Assembly (NCBI GenBank): GCA_963722735.1
Contig: CAVROH010000016.1
Location: 127,962-191,961, forward strand
Source of the DNA: an uncultured Chloroflexia bacterium
GTDB taxonomy: Bacteria > Chloroflexota > Anaerolineae > Anaerolineales > UBA11579
Direction of reading: 5' to 3'
DNA length: 64,000 nt
Positions 11,952-28,167 of this stretch are shown here, piece by piece; position 1 is the first letter of the stretch; each line of letters begins with the position of its first letter. A model generated the notes under the pieces. It worked only from the letters and a program-made list of their open reading frames with translations, made no database searches and was not told where the DNA came from. The position numbers were made by a program, and so were the translations under genes.

Positions 11952-14744
<2,793 letters not shown>

Positions 14745-14748
<4 letters not shown>

Positions 14749-15668
14749 TGCTGGCTCCTGCCGTCTGTGGTCTCTTGCAGACCTGCGGATTTTCGCAGAC
14801 CCACCCGTTCCCAGGCAGACTGGAAAGTGTCAGACAAGAGCACACCTGCCATTGCCTCACGGTAGGCTTTTGTTGCCCGATGCCGGCTGGTTCGAAAACT
14901 GGCTTCTTCTAGGATCGCCTGATAGGCTTCCTCAATCAGATCAGCTGAGTACGACTCTCCGCGAAGCACACTTTCTGCGCCGGTCAGCCGCCGCGGAGTC
15001 GGGCCTGACGGCCCAATCGAAATGCGCACATCCTTGATCAGATCGCCTTCCCGGTGCAGCCAAACAGCGCAGTTCAAGATTGCGATCGCTACACCCTGCG
15101 GGCGCATCACCCGCTTGAAAGAGGAGGCCTGGCCCTCTTCCGTCAGCGGCAGCAGGATCCCGACAAGGATCTCGCCCCTCGGGTCGAGTGTATTCTGACC
15201 TGGCCCCCTAAACAATTCTGCCAGGGGAGCAATTCGCCTGCCATTCTCAGCGGCGATCTCAACCCTGGCATTCAATGACATCAACGCAATCGTTCCGTCA
15301 GCAGCCGGCAGCGCATGAGCGACATTCCCGCCCAAGGTCGCCACATTGCGCACCTGTGGCCCACCGATCAGCCCGCTGGCTTCAGCCAATGCCTGGGCAT
15401 GCTCAATGATTAAGGGATCATTCGTGATCTTGCGATGGGTCACTCCGGCTCCGATGAAAATCTCATCCCTGCGCAATTCAAGTCGATTAAGCTCAGGGAT
15501 ATTGGTGATATCCACCATCAGGTCGACAACAGAATGGCGCCCCTGCTGGATATCCAGCAGCAGGTCCGTACCACCAGCCAACACGGCTACATCACCCGCG
15601 CTCTGCCTAATCACCGCGAGGGCGTCATCGATCGTATTTGCATAATGGAAATTGTTACAAGTTTTCAT
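14745..15668 (-). CDS. FAD-binding subunit of the xanthine dehydrogenase/CoxM family
   Basis: 307-aa ORF with AVLAGGTDLLLDIQ ... VRNVATLGGNVAHALPAAD. Its stop overlaps the start of the Moco subunit gene (14745-14748). Confidence 0.85.
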
Positions 15669-20393: not shown

Positions 20394-21892
20394 CTAATCG
20401 TCATCGCCACCATTATCATCTTCATGCTCCTGCCCATCCCAATGGCAACGCACGCAATCATTCAGATTGGACACACCCTCATGCTCATTCCGGATATCAG
20501 CAGGACTGTGCTCATGGCATCCATAACAGGTATAGGCAGGGTATGTATTATTGGTGTGGCACAGATCACATTGCTGGTTAGCATCCCCGTGATTGAGCGG
20601 GAAGGTATGATCAAAACTGGCCGGCTCCCAGGCGCTGGTTGAATGACAAATAGAGCACTGACCGCCAAAATGGTTGGCGGGCTTATCAGCCGTATGGCAG
20701 GAGAGACAGTCCACCGCGCCTGATGCCTGGTGGTCGAACGTTGCTGGGCGCCAGGCAGATGTAAGGTGACAGGCTGAACACTGCCCAGCGTAATGGTTAG
20801 CGGGTTTATCAGCGGAATGGCAAGCAGTACAATCCGCGGCATACTCACCTTGATGTGAGAAAATTACCTCCTGCCAACTGATGACAACATGACAGGTGGC
20901 GCAGTCGCTGCCAAATTGACCATTATGCGGCTCATCCTCAAGGTGGCACGAAACACACAGCGGATCTACTCCCTGATAGGTCGCCGTTGCATGGCAATTT
21001 TCACAATCCAGATCCGCATGCCCGCCTTCCAGCAGGAAACCTGTGGAGCTGTGATCGAACACTGCCTCTTTCCAGCCTGCTGGGTCATGGCAGACATCAC
21101 AGTTCTGACCCAGCTCGCCATTATGGGCGTCGTCTTCCAGATGGCAGGAGACACAAAGCATCGAGGTCAACTGCAAATCGGCCAAACTCCTCGCGGAAGG
21201 ATGGCATTCTGCACACAGAACATCTCCGTGTTTACCGGCCAACGCAAACTGGAAAGCATTGTGATCGAAATTCTTCCCATAGGAATCCACTCCGTCGTGA
21301 CACACAAGGCAATCCAACCCAAATAACTGTGTATGGCCAGAGATGAAAGAAATCCCCACATCCTGATGGCAGGTCAGGCAGATTGAAGGCAAAAAATCCG
21401 CGAAACCATCAACATGGCAGTCTGAACACACAATCTCCCGTTCCCACTCAATCTGGCTGTGCCCGGCCAATGAATATCCCACCAATTCATGCTCAAAGTC
21501 ATCTGCCAGATATTCTGTCGTGCTGGCATCCAGGCCGCCATGGTCTGTATGACAATCGCGGCAATCAATTTTATTCGAATCCTGACAATGACTGCGCTAT
21601 GCAGCGAAGACCCATCCGCAAGCTGCCCGATGATATCCTGATGACACTCCAGGCAAAGGTCCGTCATGATCGTTTTTTGCCAGAAAGCCGGATGGCAAGC
21701 AGCGCATTCGGCTTCCAGTTCTGCATGCGAGTGCACCCCGCCGATCTGCTTCCCGGAAGATTGTGCATTTAAATCACCCGGGCTGAACATTCTATTACCG
21801 GTTGCTGCATAACTGAATCCCACCGCGATGAAAGAAAATACCATTGCAATCAAGCCACCGGTGGTCAGACATCCCAAGCCTCTCCGCTTCAT
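20394..21892 (-). CDS. signal-anchored multihaem c-type cytochrome with 19 CxxCH motifs; one apparent frameshift near 21595
   Basis: The N-terminus MKRRGLGCLTTGGLIAMVFSFIAVGF is a signal/anchor. There are 2 CxxCH before the frame break, CRDCH just after it, and 16 more in ORF 20394-21485. The protein has repeated CxxCH...W...FDH modules and an acidic tail DDNGGDDD. AGGAG lies 8 nt upstream of the ATG. Confidence 0.85.
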
Positions 21893-21905
21893 CTGAAACT
21901 CCTAA

Positions 21906-22676
21906 TTACCGCAGTAAGGTGGCGTAATAAAGCGCAGCACCGATATGGATGAAGGCAATCGCAAACATCGCTACCCCTAATGGGATGTGCACCGTATGCC
22001 ATACCGCCAGTAGTTTTCTGGCAGTAGCAAATTGCATCATCTGGCGATTGAGGAGAGCTTGCTGATCCCAACCCTGGCTCAGTTTAAGCACCAAAGCACG
22101 ATCCTCACCCCCGAGGCTGCCTACCAGTCTCTTCCAACCTATCCGGAATCTGCCCCGTCGAGAGTTCGCAGAGAACAAACCTTCAACCTGGCGGTAAATC
22201 TCAGGACGAGACTGCTGCAATGCTGCCAACCTATGCTGATTTTCTTCTGCTAGCTGGCGCAATTGTTCCAATTCCACCTCGGCCCCATCCACCGACCTTG
22301 GGATAGCTGTGTAAAAATACCGACCAACAAACCCGCTGAGCACGATGATCAATGTCATCAGGGTCAAGATCCCTGCCAGGCCATTGAACTTCCAGGAGGT
22401 ATGCAGTAAAACCAGATAAGGTCCGACCAACCCGGTGAAGATATGAAATGAGAGCCAGCTTTCCATCTTTCCCCAGCGAGCGAATTGGTATCGTTTTCGA
22501 AGGGAATAAAGCACCTCGGTCATCAACATCATTATGAAACCCAGGATCCCAAGTGAGTGGCCCAGCAGACCGCTGGCAGAAGGGATTTCAGTCACCGCTG
22601 CTGCGCCGAGATAGAAAACCGTGATCCCGAAGATCGCCAGGAAAGCTAACCACAATTCCAGGTTTCTAATTCGCAT
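21906..22676 (-). CDS. His-rich integral membrane protein with 5 predicted TM helices and a long coiled-coil loop; putative haem-b carrier
   Basis: Read from the internal ATG at 22676 (MRIRNLELW). Hydrophobic helices carry GHSLG, SFHIFTG, LLHTSW, WHTVHIPLG and FIHIG, six His in total. A ~90-aa charged loop separates TM4 and TM5. I do not recognise a named family, and the haem-binding role is inferred. Confidence 0.55.
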   Translation of the reverse strand: MRIRNLELWLAFLAIFGITVFYLGAAAVTEIPSASGLLGHSLGILGFIMMLMTEVLYSLRKRYQFARWGKMESWLSFHIFTGLVGPYLVLLHTSWKFNGLAGILTLMTLIIVLSGFVGRYFYTAIPRSVDGAEVELEQLRQLAEENQHRLAALQQSRPEIYRQVEGLFSANSRRGRFRIGWKRLVGSLGGEDRALVLKLSQGWDQQALLNRQMMQFATARKLLAVWHTVHIPLGVAMFAIAFIHIGAALYYATLLR

Positions 22677-23985
22677 CAAATTGCCTCCATCTCTGCCAAT
22701 AATTGAACAGGATACTGCCAAGATCAGCCCCTGAGGTGACCAGAGAATCCCGTATCGAGGAAATATCCACCCCTTCCCGCACAAGATCCTCCAGAGCTTT
22801 GGATAGGGATTGATCTCCCATCAACAAAGCGCCCTCCAACTTTGTTTTTCCTACCATCACCCGCAAGCGGTTGACATCAAAGCTGTTCTGGCAGAGGACC
22901 GCATCAGGCATTTGTTGCCAGGCTTCACTCTCCCCGCGGACAATCGAGAGATCCTCCTCACCACCTTTCTCGCCCGTCCCCACCCTGCCTATGATTGTTG
23001 TGGTCAGTCCCGTCAGGCGTGTGACATTCAATGCGTTCTCCCTGAGATAGGGCCGCTGCTCTCCAGCCATATTCATCCCCGCCACATGCCCCTGGTTGCG
23101 AGCAGGGTTCCACAGGCTGTCAATAATCCAGCCCTCTGATACCGGGTCAAAAGATTCGGTCACATCCCCAGCGGCATAAACATCCTGTGCACTGGTCTCC
23201 AGATATTCATTCACCCTAACCCCTCGTCCAGCTTCCAATCCGCTCTTTTTTGCCAAACCAACCCGAGGCAGAACCCCAATGGCAAAGGCGACCATTTCAG
23301 TCCGATGCAGACGACCATCTTTTGTCGCGACTCCAGTAACGCGGCCATTTCTGCCAATGATCTTTGCCACCTCAGTATTTTTATGGATTTTCACCCCATC
23401 ATGCCGCAGCCTGGATTCGATCATCCCAGATTCGATCTCATCCAGCACCCTGTTCCAATAACGTTCGCCACGGATGAAGAAATCCACAGCAACCCCGCGA
23501 GCATTCAGACCTTCAACGATCTCGATCGCTGTGATCCCTCCGCCAACCACCACCGCTTTCCTCTGCCGCCGGGCTTGTTTGATCATCAACCTGGTCTGAG
23601 CCAGCGAATCCAGATAGACAACACCATCCAGATCGACCCCCTCGATCGAAGGGCGAACCGCTGCCGCGCCGGTCGCCACCAGCAACCGGTCATAGCGCAT
23701 TTTTCTCCCATCCTGAAGGATGATCTCATGGTTGGTTGAATTAATCCCATTGACATGGTTGTGATAGAAGTTGATCCCCCGAGCTTTAAAATCAGATCTG
23801 CTAAAGGGGTACAGCGATTTCTCGCCTAATTCTTTACTAAGGAAATATGCCAGCCCGGGGCGAGAGTAGTATCCTTGCTTTTCAGCAGAGATACACACGA
23901 TCTCACTGGCGCGATCCAGATTCCGGATCGATTCGGCCGCCGCAATGCCAGCAGCACCTGCCCCGATGATCACATAGCGTTTCAC
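22666..23985 (-). CDS. FAD/NAD(P)-binding pyridine-nucleotide-disulfide-family oxidoreductase
   Basis: 439-aa ORF with a GTG start overlapping the ferredoxin stop (GTGA). It has dinucleotide folds VIIGAGAAGIAAAE and VVVGGGITAIEIVE plus the FAD motif VYAAGDV. Confidence 0.85.
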   Translation of the reverse strand: MKRYVIIGAGAAGIAAAESIRNLDRASEIVCISAEKQGYYSRPGLAYFLSKELGEKSLYPFSRSDFKARGINFYHNHVNGINSTNHEIILQDGRKMRYDRLLVATGAAAVRPSIEGVDLDGVVYLDSLAQTRLMIKQARRQRKAVVVGGGITAIEIVEGLNARGVAVDFFIRGERYWNRVLDEIESGMIESRLRHDGVKIHKNTEVAKIIGRNGRVTGVATKDGRLHRTEMVAFAIGVLPRVGLAKKSGLEAGRGVRVNEYLETSAQDVYAAGDVTESFDPVSEGWIIDSLWNPARNQGHVAGMNMAGEQRPYLRENALNVTRLTGLTTTIIGRVGTGEKGGEEDLSIVRGESEAWQQMPDAVLCQNSFDVNRLRVMVGKTKLEGALLMGDQSLSKALEDLVREGVDISSIRDSLVTSGADLGSILFNYWQRWRQFDAN

Positions 23986-24245
23986 CTTGCAACTTCCTTA
24001 TCGCTTTTTGGGATCTGCCCGAAATGAAGCACGCCGCGCGGGCAACGGCTGACACACTCGCCACAGGTGATACAATGGCTGTCCACGATCGGTTTCCCAA
24101 TCCAGGCGAAGCGCCTGACATCAATCCCGATCGGACAATTATACGAGCAGATACCGCACTGCACGCAGCGAAATGGATCAGGAACCACCTGTCCTGTTGA
24201 AAGCACTTTATAGCGTCTGGATCCTTCAAAGTTGGCGAATTTCAA
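23982..24245 (-). CDS. 2x[4Fe-4S] ferredoxin
   Basis: 87-aa ORF with CVQCGICSYNCP and CITCGECVSRCP. Confidence 0.85.
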   Translation of the reverse strand: MKFANFEGSRRYKVLSTGQVVPDPFRCVQCGICSYNCPIGIDVRRFAWIGKPIVDSHCITCGECVSRCPRGVLHFGQIPKSDKEVAR

Positions 24246-24349
24246 TCAATCCTCCAATTATGGAAACCTAACCAATTATACGGTGACAATTTGATTTTGC
24301 CATAGCTCTACTGGGCTAAATCCCCAAAAATCCGATTATTTCTGTCCCT

Positions 24350-24375
24350 AAAAAAAAAGACCCCACCCAGGAGTC
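24350..24375 (-). terminator. intrinsic terminator after the RACo-like gene
   Basis: The minus strand reads GACTCCTGGGTGGGGTC, a 6-bp stem including one G-U pair, followed by T9. Confidence 0.65.
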
Positions 24376-24418: not shown

Positions 24419-25981
24419 TCAAACCCCAAATTGCAGCGATTCGATGAACAGCTCCTGGAATTTGGCGTTATAATCCAGATCAATTTGCTTTGTGCGATTG
24501 GCCAGCCTCTGGGCAAGCTCCTCACCGTCAGCCAGAAGGAATCTGGCGGCTCCAAATCCGGCTCCATTGGCAATATTCTCAACTCTCTCCGCCGATACCT
24601 TCGGCAGCATCCCCAATCCAAGGACTGAAGACACATCCAGTTGGCCGCCGAAAGAACCGGTCAGGATTATCCTATCCAAGTCTTCAGGCTGAACAACCAA
24701 ATCCTTCAGCAGTATCTCCACCGCCGCCCGGATCGCCCCCTTCGCCTTCTGTAATTCCCGCACATCCTGCTGGGTCAGCCAGACCGAGTGGTCTTCGGTC
24801 AAAAAAACCGCCTTCTTTCCCTGGATTTGGTCTATCGGTAACTCGCAATTCGCTGCACAGAATTTGCCGCTGGGGTCAATTACACCGATACGCACCAGTT
24901 CATCAACCACCTTCAGCAATCCAGAACCAGTCAGGCCACGGGGAAGCTCATCTTCGATGGTTTTGAACTCGAAGCGGCCATTGGCAAACACCGCATCTAC
25001 GATCGCACCTGGTACTGCCCGCATCCCACAAGAAATATCCACCCCTTCAAAGGCTGGGCCGGCAGCCGTAGATGCCGCCACGATCCTGTCACCGTCCGTC
25101 AGGAGTACCTCCCCATTGGTGCCCAGATCTACTGTCAGCACCGGGTTTTGAACTTTATCATATCCAAAATAAGCCAGACAGGCCAATGCATCCGAGCCTA
25201 CAAACCCCCCGATCATCGGTGGGAGGATGACCTCAACGTCTTCCTTGAACATCCCGCCCAATAAACCGCTGGCATCCTTGATCAACGCCTTTTCAAACGG
25301 CTGGAAGGGCATCATCGCGATGGATTTCACAGGTAAACCCAACAAGAGATGATGCATCGCCACATTCCCAACAATACTGACCCGCTCGATTCGCCTTTGT
25401 AGAGATTTTGAGAGTTTCAGGGCATCAATCGCCTGGTAGATCGAAGAAAGCGACAGCCGCTGCAACCGCTCCTGATGAGCACTGCTGTTCAGGGCCGCCG
25501 ACAGGCGGGAGATCACGTCGGCGCCATACACCCGCTGCTGATTGAGTGCCGCGCCTCCCGAGACCACCTCACCGGTATCCAGCAGCGTCAGATAGGCGGC
25601 AACCGTGGTTGATCCCAGATCAATCGCCAGACCAAGCGGTACCCGATGATCTCTTTTATGCCGCGAACCCGATCGGAAAACTTTGTTGGTATAGACCTCA
25701 ATGGGCGAGAGCACAACCTGGGTATCCGAAATCACCTTTGCCCGGCAGGCCAGGCGTGTCCCGAGAGATAATTCGCTATCGGTCAGATACTCTCGTTCTA
25801 TCTCGTCCGGGCTGCCGGCACCCTTCTCCACCAGCATTTTGCACCGTCCGCAGGTACCGCGGCCGGCACAAGGCTGTTCCACCGGCATCTCTGCCGACGC
25901 GATCACATCACCCAGCAACGCCCCCTGGGCGGCTTCAACCTCAACCATTTTCTCACCAAGCAAGATGGTCACTTTACTCAT
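24419..25981 (-). CDS. RACo-type corrinoid reductive activase ([2Fe-2S] ferredoxin domain plus ASKHA ATPase domain)
   Basis: The N-terminus has CAGRGTCGRCKM ... LACRA (plant-type 2Fe-2S). Then come GLAIDLGSTTVAAYL and DLGTNGEV, which are ASKHA phosphate-binding motifs. The ATGA overlaps the DUF1638 stop. Confidence 0.8.
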   Translation of the reverse strand: MSKVTILLGEKMVEVEAAQGALLGDVIASAEMPVEQPCAGRGTCGRCKMLVEKGAGSPDEIEREYLTDSELSLGTRLACRAKVISDTQVVLSPIEVYTNKVFRSGSRHKRDHRVPLGLAIDLGSTTVAAYLTLLDTGEVVSGGAALNQQRVYGADVISRLSAALNSSAHQERLQRLSLSSIYQAIDALKLSKSLQRRIERVSIVGNVAMHHLLLGLPVKSIAMMPFQPFEKALIKDASGLLGGMFKEDVEVILPPMIGGFVGSDALACLAYFGYDKVQNPVLTVDLGTNGEVLLTDGDRIVAASTAAGPAFEGVDISCGMRAVPGAIVDAVFANGRFEFKTIEDELPRGLTGSGLLKVVDELVRIGVIDPSGKFCAANCELPIDQIQGKKAVFLTEDHSVWLTQQDVRELQKAKGAIRAAVEILLKDLVVQPEDLDRIILTGSFGGQLDVSSVLGLGMLPKVSAERVENIANGAGFGAARFLLADGEELAQRLANRTKQIDLDYNAKFQELFIESLQFGV

Positions 25982-26736
25982 CTGAATAATTCCTGTTTCA
26001 GAGTCTCCCCTGGTTTGATCACAATGAATTTGTCATCTACAGGCTCAGATCCAGCCAGTGTATCTTCCAGTGCAAGGAGGAAATCAGCCACCCCTAAAAT
26101 CTCCTCGTAAACCATCCCCCACCTTTCGCAAAATTCTGCTACCTCCAGGGCCTGTTCCCGGAAACCGTCCAAATCAGCCTGATGATTTGCCACAAAAACC
26201 AGACGGCGATAATGCCTGTACTGCTGGTCCATAACAAACTCGGCGGTTTCCATCCCATACTTCTCCACGTATCCGCGATACTCTCCAAGGGGATGGGTTC
26301 CTGCCTGCAGCCAACCTTTGGTCAGATAATAGGTGCCTGGTTCTTTTTCGTGCTCAGCCAGATAGGCTTCCCGCCCACCCATGAACATGGCGATACAGTC
26401 ATCCATCCTGGGGATAATCAAGATATGCTTTCCGGCGCGGATATCGTGCAAGCCATTCCCACACAAGCCATATCCCAGTATGATCACACTTGGCTCTTCG
26501 ATCCTATCGATCTGTTCCTGCACCTGGGCATGGAGCAACTTGGGAGTGGCATGCAATCCCGCATCCAGGAAAAGGGGCTCTGGTCCGAGTCGCGTTTTTG
26601 GTGTGACGCCAACCAAGCCTTTCAATACCTCGCAGGATAAGAATACCGTCGGCTTTTGGCTGAAAATTTCTTTACTCAATAACCTGCCTCTTGCGAAAAT
26701 CCTTGATCCAGCGCATCCCGTATTCATCCCGGCCAA
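25978..26736 (-). CDS. DUF1638-family protein
   Basis: ILGYGLCGNGL ... ILIIPRMDDCIAMFMG matches my recollection of DUF1638. The maximal ORF overlaps the upstream gene by 65 nt. A TTG at 26679 that overlaps the upstream stop is an alternative start. Confidence 0.6.
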   Translation of the reverse strand: MAGMNTGCAGSRIFARGRLLSKEIFSQKPTVFLSCEVLKGLVGVTPKTRLGPEPLFLDAGLHATPKLLHAQVQEQIDRIEEPSVIILGYGLCGNGLHDIRAGKHILIIPRMDDCIAMFMGGREAYLAEHEKEPGTYYLTKGWLQAGTHPLGEYRGYVEKYGMETAEFVMDQQYRHYRRLVFVANHQADLDGFREQALEVAEFCERWGMVYEEILGVADFLLALEDTLAGSEPVDDKFIVIKPGETLKQELFR

Positions 26737-27538
26737 GGGCCAGGTCCGCCGCCAGGACTGCGGTTCTCACTTCTGTTAAAAGCGGATTGGTGATCGGGCA
26801 GGTCAGCCCGGATTGGATCGCCATCGCAATATACGCAGCATTAATATATTTGCGGTCCGGCATCCCGAAGGAGATGTTGCTGGCGCCCATAGTGATATTG
26901 ACACCAAATTTCTCCACCACCAGCAGCAAGGTATCCAGGGCCACCTTCCCGGCAGTGTGATCGGCTCCGAGGGCCATTGCCAGCGGATCGATGAGAACGT
27001 CTTCCGGCGGAATCCCCAGGGCGCTAGCGCGTTCGATGATCCGTTCTGCAACCAGCAAGCGCTCGGCAGGCGTGGACGGGATCCCATCATCAGAAATGCA
27101 CAGCCCGATCACGGCTGCGCCATACTCTTTGGCAATCGGAAGCACAGCCGCCAATGATTTTTCCTCGCCATTGACCGAATTGATCAGTGCTTTTCCGGGA
27201 TAGATTTTCAATGCAGCTTCCAGAGCTTCAGGATTGGCAGTATCAATACACAACGGCACATCCACCACAGACATCGCCTCAGCCATGACCTTTGGCAGCA
27301 AGGTGAATTCATCTGAACCTGGCACACCCGCATTAATATCCAGAACTTTTGCCCCCGCCTCAACCTGGGCAAGCGCATCCTTTCGCACAATGCTGAAATC
27401 ACCGGCTTCCAGAGATTTGAGCACGGCTTTTCGCCCGGTTGGATTGATCCGCTCACCAATGATCACCGTCGGTAAATTTCGGTCGATGACTACCGTTTGT
27501 GATCCTGTGGATAGTGTGGTTTTCAGATTTTCAGTCAT
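26672..27538 (-). CDS. pterin-binding (MtrH/AcsE/MetH-domain type) methyltetrahydrofolate:corrinoid methyltransferase
   Basis: 288-aa ORF with IIGERINPTGRK ... VLDINAG ... LCIDT ... LINSVNGE ... GASNISFGMP, the blocks of the DHPS-like pterin-binding barrel. Confidence 0.85.
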   Translation of the reverse strand: MTENLKTTLSTGSQTVVIDRNLPTVIIGERINPTGRKAVLKSLEAGDFSIVRKDALAQVEAGAKVLDINAGVPGSDEFTLLPKVMAEAMSVVDVPLCIDTANPEALEAALKIYPGKALINSVNGEEKSLAAVLPIAKEYGAAVIGLCISDDGIPSTPAERLLVAERIIERASALGIPPEDVLIDPLAMALGADHTAGKVALDTLLLVVEKFGVNITMGASNISFGMPDRKYINAAYIAMAIQSGLTCPITNPLLTEVRTAVLAADLALGRDEYGMRWIKDFRKRQVIE

Positions 27539-27540
27539 AG

Positions 27541-28167
27541 TTACTTCATTAAGGATTTTGCCAGAGCAGCAGCCCGGCTGGCATCAGCTGCAAAGCCATC
27601 CGCCCCGATCTTATCCGCATACTCTTGAGTGACCGGTGCACCACCGACCAGGATCTTGACCGTGTCTCGCAAACCAGCTTCTTCAATCGCCTCAATCGTC
27701 TTTTCCATCGAGCTCATCGTGGTGGTCAGAAGCGCCGACAGACCAATCATATCCGTCCCTTCCCTGACCGCTTCGACGAAGGCTTCGGGTGTAACATCTG
27801 TTCCCAGATCCACGACCTCAAAACCTGCCCCTTCCATCATCATTCCTACCAGGTTTTTGCCGATATCGTGCAGGTCTCCCTTCACAGTACCGATTACCAC
27901 CTTGCCAGAAGACTTCACATCCTCAGCCGCAAGATGAGGTTTCAGTAAACCCAGCCCGGCCTGCATCGCCCTAGCCGCGATCAGCATTTCAGGCACAAAG
28001 AACTCGCCCTCCTCGAAACGTTTCCCGACTTCCTTCATTGCCAGGATCAATCCTTCCTGAAGGATCTTGTCCGCTGAAGTTCCTCCATCAAGAACTGCCT
28101 GGACGCTTTCCTGCACGCCACCGGCATCCCCTGCCAGAACATGATCAAATATGGTCTGAACATTCAT
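27541..28167 (-). CDS. cobalamin-binding corrinoid protein (MtbC/MttC/MtaC type)
   Basis: 208-aa ORF with an N-terminal helical cap, the B12-binding motif GDLHDIGKN (DxHxxG) and a following ALLTTT block. Confidence 0.9.
   Translation of the reverse strand: MNVQTIFDHVLAGDAGGVQESVQAVLDGGTSADKILQEGLILAMKEVGKRFEEGEFFVPEMLIAARAMQAGLGLLKPHLAAEDVKSSGKVVIGTVKGDLHDIGKNLVGMMMEGAGFEVVDLGTDVTPEAFVEAVREGTDMIGLSALLTTTMSSMEKTIEAIEEAGLRDTVKILVGGAPVTQEYADKIGADGFAADASRAAALAKSLMK

Follow-up and report, generated by a model that had tools for sequence, protein, structure and literature searches.

A four-gene operon of an uncultured Anaerolineales bacterium as a candidate transmembrane electron conduit from NAD(P)H to a multihaem cytochrome

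In sediments, aquifers, digesters and anode communities, members of the Anaerolineae are abundant. Their genomes specify multihaem cytochromes of very large size, and how these join the metabolism of the cell has lacked an explanation. An operon of an uncultured member of the Anaerolineales raises the question in compact form. It occupies the minus strand between positions 20394 and 24245 of a 64,000-nucleotide stretch of DNA (the window; positions 127,962 to 191,961 of contig CAVROH010000016.1, assembly GCA_963722735.1) and specifies, in the order of reading, a ferredoxin, a flavoprotein, a small membrane protein and a multihaem c-type cytochrome (Table 1). Do these four make up a path for electrons across the cytoplasmic membrane? 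Our analysis, which is wholly computational, puts the chances somewhat above even that they form a four-part transmembrane electron-transfer module, in which electrons would pass from NAD(P)H through flavin adenine dinucleotide (FAD), the two [4Fe-4S] clusters of the ferredoxin and two b-haems to a c-haem wire. What is seen directly is the identity of the domains, the conservation of histidines, the synteny of the genes, the overlaps between them and the placement of the membrane protein in no known family; from these we infer haem binding, the order of the carriers, outward flow, the nature of the acceptor and independence of quinone.

The first two genes encode recognizable redox proteins. 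In the ferredoxin the motif CxxCxxCxxxCP occurs twice, at residues 27 and 58; the protein passes the Pfam threshold for Fer4_7 (E=2e-10, 41.4 bits, cut-off 27), with further matches to Fer4 dicluster profiles, all of which are attributes of a 2x[4Fe-4S] ferredoxin of bacterial type; among NCBIfam models it weakly resembles PadF. The flavoprotein belongs to Pyr_redox_2 (E=3.9e-50, 171.3 bits, cut-off 26.1). Its dinucleotide motifs are GAGAAG (GxGxxG) at residue 8 and GGGITA (GxGxxA) at residue 148, and at residue 40 it has the sequence YSRPGL, which we take to be typical of ferredoxin and rubredoxin reductases. C31 and C365 are its only cysteines and there is no CxxxxC motif; it is, in other words, of the ferredoxin-reductase type that has no redox-active disulfide. 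The second Rossmann strand ends in R-G-E-R, with no acidic residue there, which may favour NADPH by parallel with the glutathione reductase family. Scanning of both sequences found no hydrophobic or export segment. (A possible Tat signal in the ferredoxin, SRRYKVL, was rejected because no Tat-like hydrophobic stretch follows the motif.) An earlier note on this DNA, made from the sequence alone, had described the two proteins as an 87-residue 2x[4Fe-4S] ferredoxin and a 439-residue flavoprotein with two dinucleotide folds and no signal peptide, and both descriptions hold.

The top NCBIfam match of the flavoprotein, over its full length, is to PadH (NF045765; E=2.8e-49), at 168.1 bits against an equivalog cut-off of 475. 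Matches to the related flavoproteins of the ferredoxin/rubredoxin-reductase group (the N-terminal part of NirB, AndAa, HcaD and NorW) are all far under their equivalog cut-offs as well. The likeness to PadH is one of architecture only: in phenylglyoxylate:NAD+ oxidoreductase, PadF and PadH (delta and epsilon) likewise combine a small 2x[4Fe-4S] ferredoxin relay with a Pyr_redox_2 FAD/NAD(H) flavoprotein, whereas the partners here are a membrane protein and a cytochrome in place of a 2-oxoacid oxidoreductase or an oxygenase.

The argument turns on the membrane protein. An AlphaFold2 model built on a 60-member alignment (pLDDT 92.6, pTM 0.83) places transmembrane (TM) helices at residues 6-28, 37-62, 71-92 and 99-124, a helical insert at 136-187, and a long helix at 190-253 of which the last third is TM5. 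The model is in accord with the earlier description of a 256-residue protein with five TM helices and a large helical loop, and the loop is predicted to be a cytoplasmic insert of ~95 residues. Histidines are found at positions 40, 78, 92, 227, 230 and 244, with one more, H148, inside the insert. In the alignment, which reaches down to 29% identity, ten columns are invariant and four of these are H78, H92, H230 and H244. (The earlier note had counted six intramembrane histidines; four of them are thus absolutely conserved, while H40 and H227 are kept in only 48 and 50 of the 60 sequences, respectively.) H78 and H92 are on TM3, H230 and H244 on TM5. The histidines of each pair, invariant in 60 of 60 sequences, are 14 residues (~21 Å) apart, and in the model the two pairs lie at matching depth in the membrane. 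Two pairs of histidines spaced by 13-14 residues on two TM helices constitute the classical di-haem b pattern of the cytochrome b of the bc1 complex and of NOX/ferric-reductase domains.

The charge of the loops indicates how the protein is oriented. Averaged over the 60 sequences, loop 2 has 5.2 lysine and arginine residues, as against 0.5 in loop 1 and 0.9 in loop 3, so that, by the positive-inside rule, the N-terminus and the insert would be inside and the C-terminus outside; in this orientation the cytoplasmic side of the membrane would be the nearer one for H78 and H230, and the outer side for H92 and H244. The highest conservation in the family is found at the cytoplasmic face, in the motifs LYSLRKR, WLxFH, GRYxYTxxPR and WHxxHxP. 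The ferredoxin may dock at these motifs and at the helical insert, and the cytochrome at a conserved outer loop, LLHxSWKFNGLAG.

Is this a protein of some known family? NCBIfam returned no match at all. The sole Pfam match of the window protein is to Ni_hydr_CYTB (PF01292), at 23.6 bits against a cut-off of 30.1, with only residues 216-252 (TM5) aligning to profile positions 130-166; the layout of that family (a four-TM core with histidines on TM1 and TM2 and two more on TM4) differs from the 2+2 arrangement on TM3 and TM5 of a five-TM protein. Sub-threshold matches of this sort recur among the 60 members, to Ni_hydr_CYTB in 24, to DUF4405 (PF14358) in 10 (best E=0.0018, 19.2 bits against a cut-off of 26.7) and to Ferric_reduct (PF01794), whose core has six TM helices rather than five, in 8 relatives (best E=4.8e-4, 20.6 bits against a cut-off of 28), the window protein itself having no match to this last profile. 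In the window protein and ten distant members, these weak matches fall mostly on the last helix with its two histidines. Comparison of the model with the PDB by Foldseek gave nothing at E<=0.001 (the top matches were helices of ABC transporters and BAR domains); a full-length profile searched against PDB sequences picked up only coiled-coil noise, such as haemagglutinin HA2, and a profile restricted to the TM core had no match even at E<=10. Because these searches for a solved relative failed, the di-haem role is well motivated rather than proven through membership in a family.

The same empty searches, and the absence of the protein from every known family, would suit a different explanation, namely that the four invariant histidines bind a metal ion or are structural, and that the membrane protein merely anchors the flavoprotein and the cytochrome without conducting electrons between them. 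We regard this as very improbable. The spacing, number and matched depth of the histidines are the signature of a di-haem protein, the weak matches are only to haem-b families, and in ~100 independent loci the membrane protein is placed genetically between the Fe-S/flavin proteins and the c-haem proteins.

Proteins of the di-haem b type with comparable tasks are known, and the putative di-haem carrier can be set beside them. The NOX, FRE and MsrQ-Fre systems share with it a cytoplasmic NAD(P)H flavoprotein that feeds two stacked b-haems, held by histidine pairs on TM3 and TM5, and an acceptor outside. They differ from it in three respects: the components are separate polypeptides here, with a 2x[4Fe-4S] ferredoxin between flavin and haems; the membrane protein has five TM helices and its large cytoplasmic insert instead of six TM helices, and stays below the Ferric_reduct threshold; and the acceptor is a multihaem cytochrome, not O2, iron chelates or MsrP. 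Closer in size are the DUF4405, MsrQ-like, PepSY-like (FoxB) and FezC proteins, which a 2024 paper groups as four-histidine transmembrane electron carriers, and among which the binding of haem b has been demonstrated experimentally for DUF4405 and FezC (PMC11334425). These also are small membrane proteins with four central conserved histidines, and a role in electron movement from the cytoplasmic side to extracytosolic redox proteins has been proposed for them. In contrast, they are linked to flavinylated proteins, ApbE or ferrosomes and not to multihaem cytochromes, whereas the present family, which reaches DUF4405 at sub-threshold level only, consistently has a ferredoxin and an NAD(P)H flavoprotein as its partners.

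The family is large. A word-indexed search found 4,678 proteins at E<=1e-3, and wherever a source supplies a name for one of them it is 'hypothetical protein'; when the search was made exhaustive, the same threshold gave 2,767 clusters (50% identity), 1,293 of them at E<=1e-10. (Some members, such as P0123, P0130, P0145 and P0152, have N-terminal zinc-ribbon or GYF_2 domains ahead of the membrane domain.)

The gene set is not peculiar to this genome. A pattern scan of one genome per species identified 546 genomes with a relative of the membrane protein; the best 80 loci, all of them in metagenome-assembled genomes (MAGs) of Anaerolineae/Chloroflexota, were analysed. Sixty-eight of these are evaluable, in the sense that at least 1.8 kb of sequence is available on both sides, and 64 of the 68 have a ferredoxin, a flavoprotein, the membrane protein and a cytochrome with at least eight haems, all encoded on the same strand. 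The position of the cytochrome gene is variable (downstream in 31 loci, upstream in 20, on both sides in 13). The junction between flavoprotein and membrane-protein genes is much less so: in 92% of 71 loci the flavoprotein stop codon lies no more than 20 nucleotides (nt) from the start of the membrane-protein gene, and nearly all of these genes overlap. All-against-all clustering of the open reading frames (ORFs) that flank the gene set in the 80 loci recovers the membrane protein in 80, cytochromes in 76 (173 ORFs), the flavoprotein in 73 and the ferredoxin in at least 63, and yields no further conserved redox partner. Regulatory genes adjoin the module in a minority of these loci: an ECF sigma factor in 20 and an anti-sigma-like protein in 20 (for example, L033 8811-9530 and L054 10990-12204), a response regulator in 17 and a histidine kinase in 16. 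The recurrence of sigma/anti-sigma and two-component genes hints at dedicated regulation.

A remote branch of the family (29-35% identity) is organized differently. The membrane-protein gene is followed by one for a flavoprotein in which 2x[4Fe-4S] and Pyr_redox_3 domains are fused, and then by the gene for a 524-residue c7-type cytochrome. Of the metagenomic loci whose downstream sequence is long enough, 35 of 36 have this order, and cytochromes with 20 and 41 haems are frequent among them; a Bacteroidales MAG is the source of one member of the branch. In a further member of the family a 2Fe-2S (Fer2) domain is fused to the membrane protein; an ORF directly upstream is weakly similar to NAD_binding_1 (FNR-type), and a c7-type cytochrome follows. 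Thus, the type of flavoprotein varies in rearranged loci (Pyr_redox_2, Pyr_redox_3, possibly FNR-type), while the context of Fe-S protein, membrane protein and cytochrome is kept. Nothing else argues as strongly that electrons pass from pyridine nucleotide to the cytochrome. The question of whether the four genes travel together elsewhere, put by the earlier note, is answered in the affirmative for the Anaerolineae and for the remote branch alike.

The same loci bear on the possibility that the membrane protein is a cytochrome b coupled to quinol or quinone, resembling CbcL or FdnI, and that it passes electrons from menaquinol to the cytochrome, with the ferredoxin and flavoprotein either reducing quinone at this site or being loosely accessory. 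That the weak Pfam likeness is to Ni_hydr_CYTB, the members of which are quinone-reactive, speaks for it, as does the fact that extracellular electron transfer in Geobacter and Shewanella begins at quinol dehydrogenases. We nevertheless think it improbable. The overlap of flavoprotein and membrane-protein genes is conserved in 92% of loci, conservation peaks at the cytoplasmic face of the protein, and no motif of a quinone site could be identified in it. In fusions and rearrangements, moreover, the membrane-protein gene always keeps beside it an Fe-S module and a flavoprotein of the NAD(P)H type, which points to a direct hand-over of electrons. A NrfD-, NapC- or bc-type protein was found neither in the operon (by Pfam and NCBIfam) nor among the conserved neighbour clusters of the 80 loci, in agreement with the earlier statement that no NapC/CymA-, NrfD- or bc-type partner is encoded. 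CbcL, ImcH and CbcBA of Geobacter and CymA of Shewanella do provide a comparable cytoplasmic-membrane entry to multihaem c-type cytochromes, and CbcL has both a di-haem b domain and a multihaem c domain. They differ from the present module in that they take their electrons from menaquinol, have no NAD(P)H flavoprotein or ferredoxin, and show no significant sequence similarity.

The direct path that we favour would be as follows. In the cytoplasm, the ferredoxin-reductase-type flavoprotein would oxidise NAD(P)H and hand single electrons to the 2x[4Fe-4S] ferredoxin, which would dock on the five-TM protein, at its helical insert and the conserved face that it turns to the cytoplasm. Two bis-histidine b-haems stacked across the membrane, the inner one at H78/H230 and the outer one at H92/H244, would carry the electrons to the other side, where the outer haem would reduce the membrane-anchored c7-type multihaem cytochrome; this in turn would wire them through the envelope to acceptors outside, for example Fe(III)- or Mn(IV)-bearing minerals, humics or a partner cell. 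A quinone step would not be required. The sidedness of the scheme is consistent with the predicted topology: flavoprotein and ferredoxin have no hydrophobic segment, the insert of the membrane protein is cytoplasmic, and the cytochrome has an N-terminal anchor. (Covalent attachment of c-haem takes place outside the cytoplasm.) The opposite-sided placement put forward in the earlier note is thus sustained. That note had also named four points on which a transmembrane conduit could be tested, namely the family of the membrane protein, the conservation of its histidines, synteny and topology; on none of them did the outcome go against it.

Outward flow would be thermodynamically downhill and favoured by the membrane potential, and would re-oxidise NAD(P)H without a quinone pool. 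Could electrons run the other way? An external cytochrome might take them from Fe(II), reduced humics, a cathode or a syntrophic partner and pass them through the b-haems to NAD(P)H or reduced ferredoxin. The PadF/PadH module, to which the flavoprotein and ferredoxin considered here are most similar, runs towards NAD+ reduction in phenylglyoxylate dehydrogenase, and electron flow through the Tmc and Hmc complexes is also thought to be inward. In addition, a cultured isolate of the Chloroflexi is capable of both anodic and cathodic electron transfer (PMC5808234). On the other hand, inward movement of electrons would be opposed by the membrane potential, the reduction of NAD(P)+ (-320 mV) or of ferredoxin is uphill from the typical potentials of c-haems, and no energy-coupling subunit is conserved in the cluster among the 80 loci. 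We accordingly give inward flow only a slim chance.

The comparison with Tmc, Hmc, Nhc and Ohc of sulfate reducers goes beyond direction. Each of these complexes is likewise encoded by one operon, with a multihaem cytochrome c for the periplasm, a cytochrome b for the membrane and an Fe-S protein for the cytoplasm, and each likewise connects the redox pools of periplasm and cytoplasm with no step dedicated to quinone. In Tmc and Hmc, in contrast, the cytoplasmic partner is a HdrD-like CCG protein serving DsrC and the cytochrome b is NarI/HdrE-like, and Hmc has an extra NrfD-like subunit; searches of the operon, and of the neighbours conserved in the 80 loci, turned up no HdrD-like CCG subunit, NarI-like cytochrome b or NrfD-like subunit. 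Since every threshold test failed, the module belongs to neither the NOX/FRE nor the Tmc/Hmc group. The Rnf-MmcA system of Methanosarcina acetivorans (PMC6703419) resembles it in that a membrane complex takes low-potential electrons from cytoplasmic ferredoxin and delivers them to a multihaem cytochrome encoded with it, which can reduce extracellular acceptors; there, however, the complex is a large, ion-pumping assembly of flavin and Fe-S proteins without a di-haem b subunit, and the proteins are unrelated.

The last component of the operon presents a difficulty. An ORF at 21374-21892 (minus strand) encodes the hydrophobic N-terminus and two CxxCH motifs of the cytochrome and then continues into unrelated out-of-frame sequence; the remaining 17 CxxCH are in another frame, which is open only from 21596 to a stop codon at 20394-20396. 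Between the codons for LH and DCRDCH there are 32 nt, as against 30 in three intact orthologues, and an A4 run is located at 21569-21572. The defect is a single indel, and only after its repair is the total of 19 CxxCH attained. The repaired cytochrome matches Cytochrome_C7 of Pfam (E=3.5e-19, 68.8 bits, cut-off 24.8), and also c3_2 and CIII, so that by motifs, profiles and N-terminal hydrophobic anchor it is a multihaem protein of the c7/c3 type whose reading frame is not intact. The earlier note had hinted at the defect (it recommended resequencing across ~21595), yet described the gene as intact. Its 19-haem, signal-anchored cytochrome survives as to the anchor and, after repair, the number of motifs, but not as a single ORF; similarly, its four tightly packed minus-strand genes are confirmed for three genes and for the junctions, and, because the cytochrome gene is split, the observation as a whole is only partly upheld.

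The frameshift means that the module is either inactivated in this strain or mis-assembled. The closest relative, L004 (Anaerolineales MAG GCA_046259605.1), whose membrane protein is 81% identical to that of the window, has an intact orthologue of 538 residues with 21 CxxCH. The 5' part of the window gene is 74% identical to residues 1-106 of this protein and the 3' part 69% identical to residues 99-531, with no further stops; one 41-residue two-haem repeat of L004 is missing. Should the operon be read as a decaying pseudogene cluster that makes no exported 19-haem cytochrome, with a frameshift that is real? The missing repeat and the frameshift itself speak for it, and when metagenome contigs were scanned by exact pattern for an allele that is intact across the frameshift, there were 0 matches. 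We find this reading doubtful: ferredoxin, flavoprotein and membrane-protein genes are undamaged and closely coupled, the two halves of the cytochrome are clean in every other respect, and the number of haem repeats varies naturally among orthologues. A second apparent frameshift at ~13,880-13,960 of the window also suggests indel errors in the assembly. Because of this second case and of the otherwise clean halves of the cytochrome, comparison of the sequences leads us to lean to an assembly error, which is the probable explanation. A programmed frameshift was considered and rejected, since three orthologues are encoded in a single frame and most related loci have full-length cytochrome ORFs.

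The second apparent frameshift affects a conserved gene of the xanthine dehydrogenase family on the minus strand (genes 11955-13964 and 13864-14829). One frame contains the Fer2, Fer2_2 and aldehyde-oxidase 'hammerhead' domains and the other MoCoBD_1/2, with an overlap of ~100 nt ('...ALEALEADRD', followed by a stop codon, in one frame, as against '...KLIETEIEELPPITDP' in the other), which suggests either assembly indel errors or decay of the gene.

Co-operonic cytochromes of the family contain from 8 to 51 CxxCH motifs (loci L005-L084 and L091-L170), the modal number being 18 in the Anaerolineae and 20 in the remote branch; second cytochromes have 26-51 haems. Variable numbers of repeated c7/c3-type modules and a long haem chain are also properties of the polymeric c7 'nanowire' cytochrome GSU1996 of Geobacter and of the large Anaerolineales cytochromes described previously (PMC7399161); the window protein is distinguished from these by its membrane anchor, by its 41-residue two-haem repeats, and by being co-operonic with a b-type carrier. 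No tandem repeats were found at the DNA level in the cytochrome gene. The LGCLTxGG motif of the signal anchor was considered as a general docking helix and rejected, being present in only 8 of 119 cytochrome ORFs.

Several points weigh against the conduit as proposed. One is the broken cytochrome gene of this genome. Another is that no Pfam or NCBIfam threshold was reached and no relative was found in the PDB, so that the assignment of two haems rests on the histidine pattern and on context. The scheme does not account for the two less conserved histidines, H40 and H227 (encoded at 22557-22559 and 21996-21998 of the window): they are predicted to lie at opposite faces of the membrane, H40 outside and H227 inside, and therefore cannot jointly ligate one haem, although a contact with haem propionates, or a part in a site of electron entry or exit, might be their task. 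The sequence does not fix the direction of flow, and the membrane protein may contain a hidden quinone site. Lastly, the distant member L088 has a DUF362 protein in place of the flavoprotein. (At this locus, L088 1335-8876, the gene lies beside the haem-biosynthesis genes hemA, hemC and hemD/cobA, followed by genes for a c7-type cytochrome and the DUF362 protein.)

The layout of the operon is given in Table 1. The ferredoxin stop codon and the GTG start of the flavoprotein gene overlap in GTGA (23982-23985), the end of the flavoprotein gene and the start of the membrane-protein gene overlap by 11 nt (22666-22676), and a spacer of 13 nt (21893-21905), with AGGAG 8 nt 5' of the ATG at 21892, separates the membrane-protein gene from that of the cytochrome. 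The ORF list and direct reading of the minus strand show the first three genes to be intact and tightly packed, and verify these junctions, which the earlier note had listed together with an upstream terminator; the latter is a 6-pair stem followed by T9, and closes the preceding operon.

Table 1. Features of the operon and its 5' boundary (positions in the window)
Feature	Position	Strand	Description
Ferredoxin gene	23982..24245	-	87 aa, TTG start, GGAGG upstream; 2x[4Fe-4S], cytoplasmic
Flavoprotein gene	22666..23985	-	439 aa, GTG start; FAD/NAD(P)H oxidoreductase, ferredoxin/rubredoxin-reductase type
Membrane-protein gene	21906..22676	-	256 aa, 5-TM, undescribed family; putative di-haem b transmembrane electron carrier
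Cytochrome gene, 5' part	21597..21892	-	Signal anchor and 2 CxxCH, frame of ATG 21892
Cytochrome frameshift zone	21567..21596	-	Single indel, by comparison with three intact orthologues
Cytochrome gene, 3' part	20394..21566	-	17 CxxCH, c7-type repeats, acidic C-terminal tail
Promoter-like site ATGGCA-17-TATAAT	24275..24303	-	Upstream of ferredoxin gene; 10 of 12 consensus positions, consensus match only
Terminator-like hairpin and T9	24350..24375	-	Stem 24375-24359, 6 pairs, then TTTTTTTTT; 5' boundary of the operon

The preceding operon (24419-28167, minus strand) encodes a corrinoid methyltransferase system: RACo (with Fer2, RACo middle and ASKHA domains), a DUF1638 protein, an MtrH-like pterin-binding methyltransferase and a B12-binding protein. 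A functional tie of the electron-transfer genes to these was considered and rejected. RACo is adjacent only in the window and in L001 and is not conserved among the 80 loci, and the hairpin and the promoter-like site separate the two operons. On the other side, a cobalamin riboswitch (RF00174; 20092-20275, minus strand; 33.4 bits against a gathering threshold of 31.5, E=6.8e-6) lies between the stop codon of the cytochrome and a btuF-like gene. A strong terminator with an 11-bp stem (20008-19983, minus strand), which could have been taken for that of the electron-transfer operon, sits just downstream of this riboswitch and is probably its expression platform, controlling the Peripla_BP_2, permease and ATPase genes at 19926-16984; a separate terminator was not found between the cytochrome stop codon (20394) and the riboswitch. 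On a larger scale, the first ~28 kb have a consistently negative GC skew (-0.05 to -0.20), whereas the values beyond are positive or close to zero (window positions 1-28000 compared with 28000-64000). Between 2.3 and 30.7 kb the genes follow one another almost without exception on the minus strand, which coincides with the negative part, and the shift may be an effect of gene orientation or a replication-related switch.

No description of the four-part module was found in the literature searched, which was a limited selection, and to this extent the earlier remark that the arrangement is not a described system stands. Large and variable multihaem cytochromes of Anaerolineales have been noted before, in papers that do not describe membrane or cytoplasmic partners for them (PMC7399161; bioRxiv 10.1101/2021.08.23.457424; PMC3971608).

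What would the module mean for these bacteria? The wider proposition, that it represents a widespread, undescribed and quinone-independent route of extracellular or periplasmic electron transfer, in which a new di-haem b family links cytoplasmic NAD(P)H, by way of its own flavoprotein and [4Fe-4S] relay, directly to giant multihaem cytochromes, is one that we put forward tentatively, at rather less than an even chance. The module defines a large unannotated family (~2,800 clusters at 50% identity) and turns the question of how Anaerolineae cytochromes join metabolism into a concrete hypothesis that can be tested by cloning. If it is true, the missing cytoplasmic-membrane step would be supplied for the Anaerolineae, with the same gene set in a second branch that includes a member in one Bacteroidales MAG. 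Fermentative organisms could then dump reducing equivalents on minerals, humics and partner cells without a respiratory quinone pool. Electron export driven by NAD(P)H and independent of quinone would be added to the known routes, with a bearing on iron and humic cycling, on syntrophy and on bioelectrochemical engineering.

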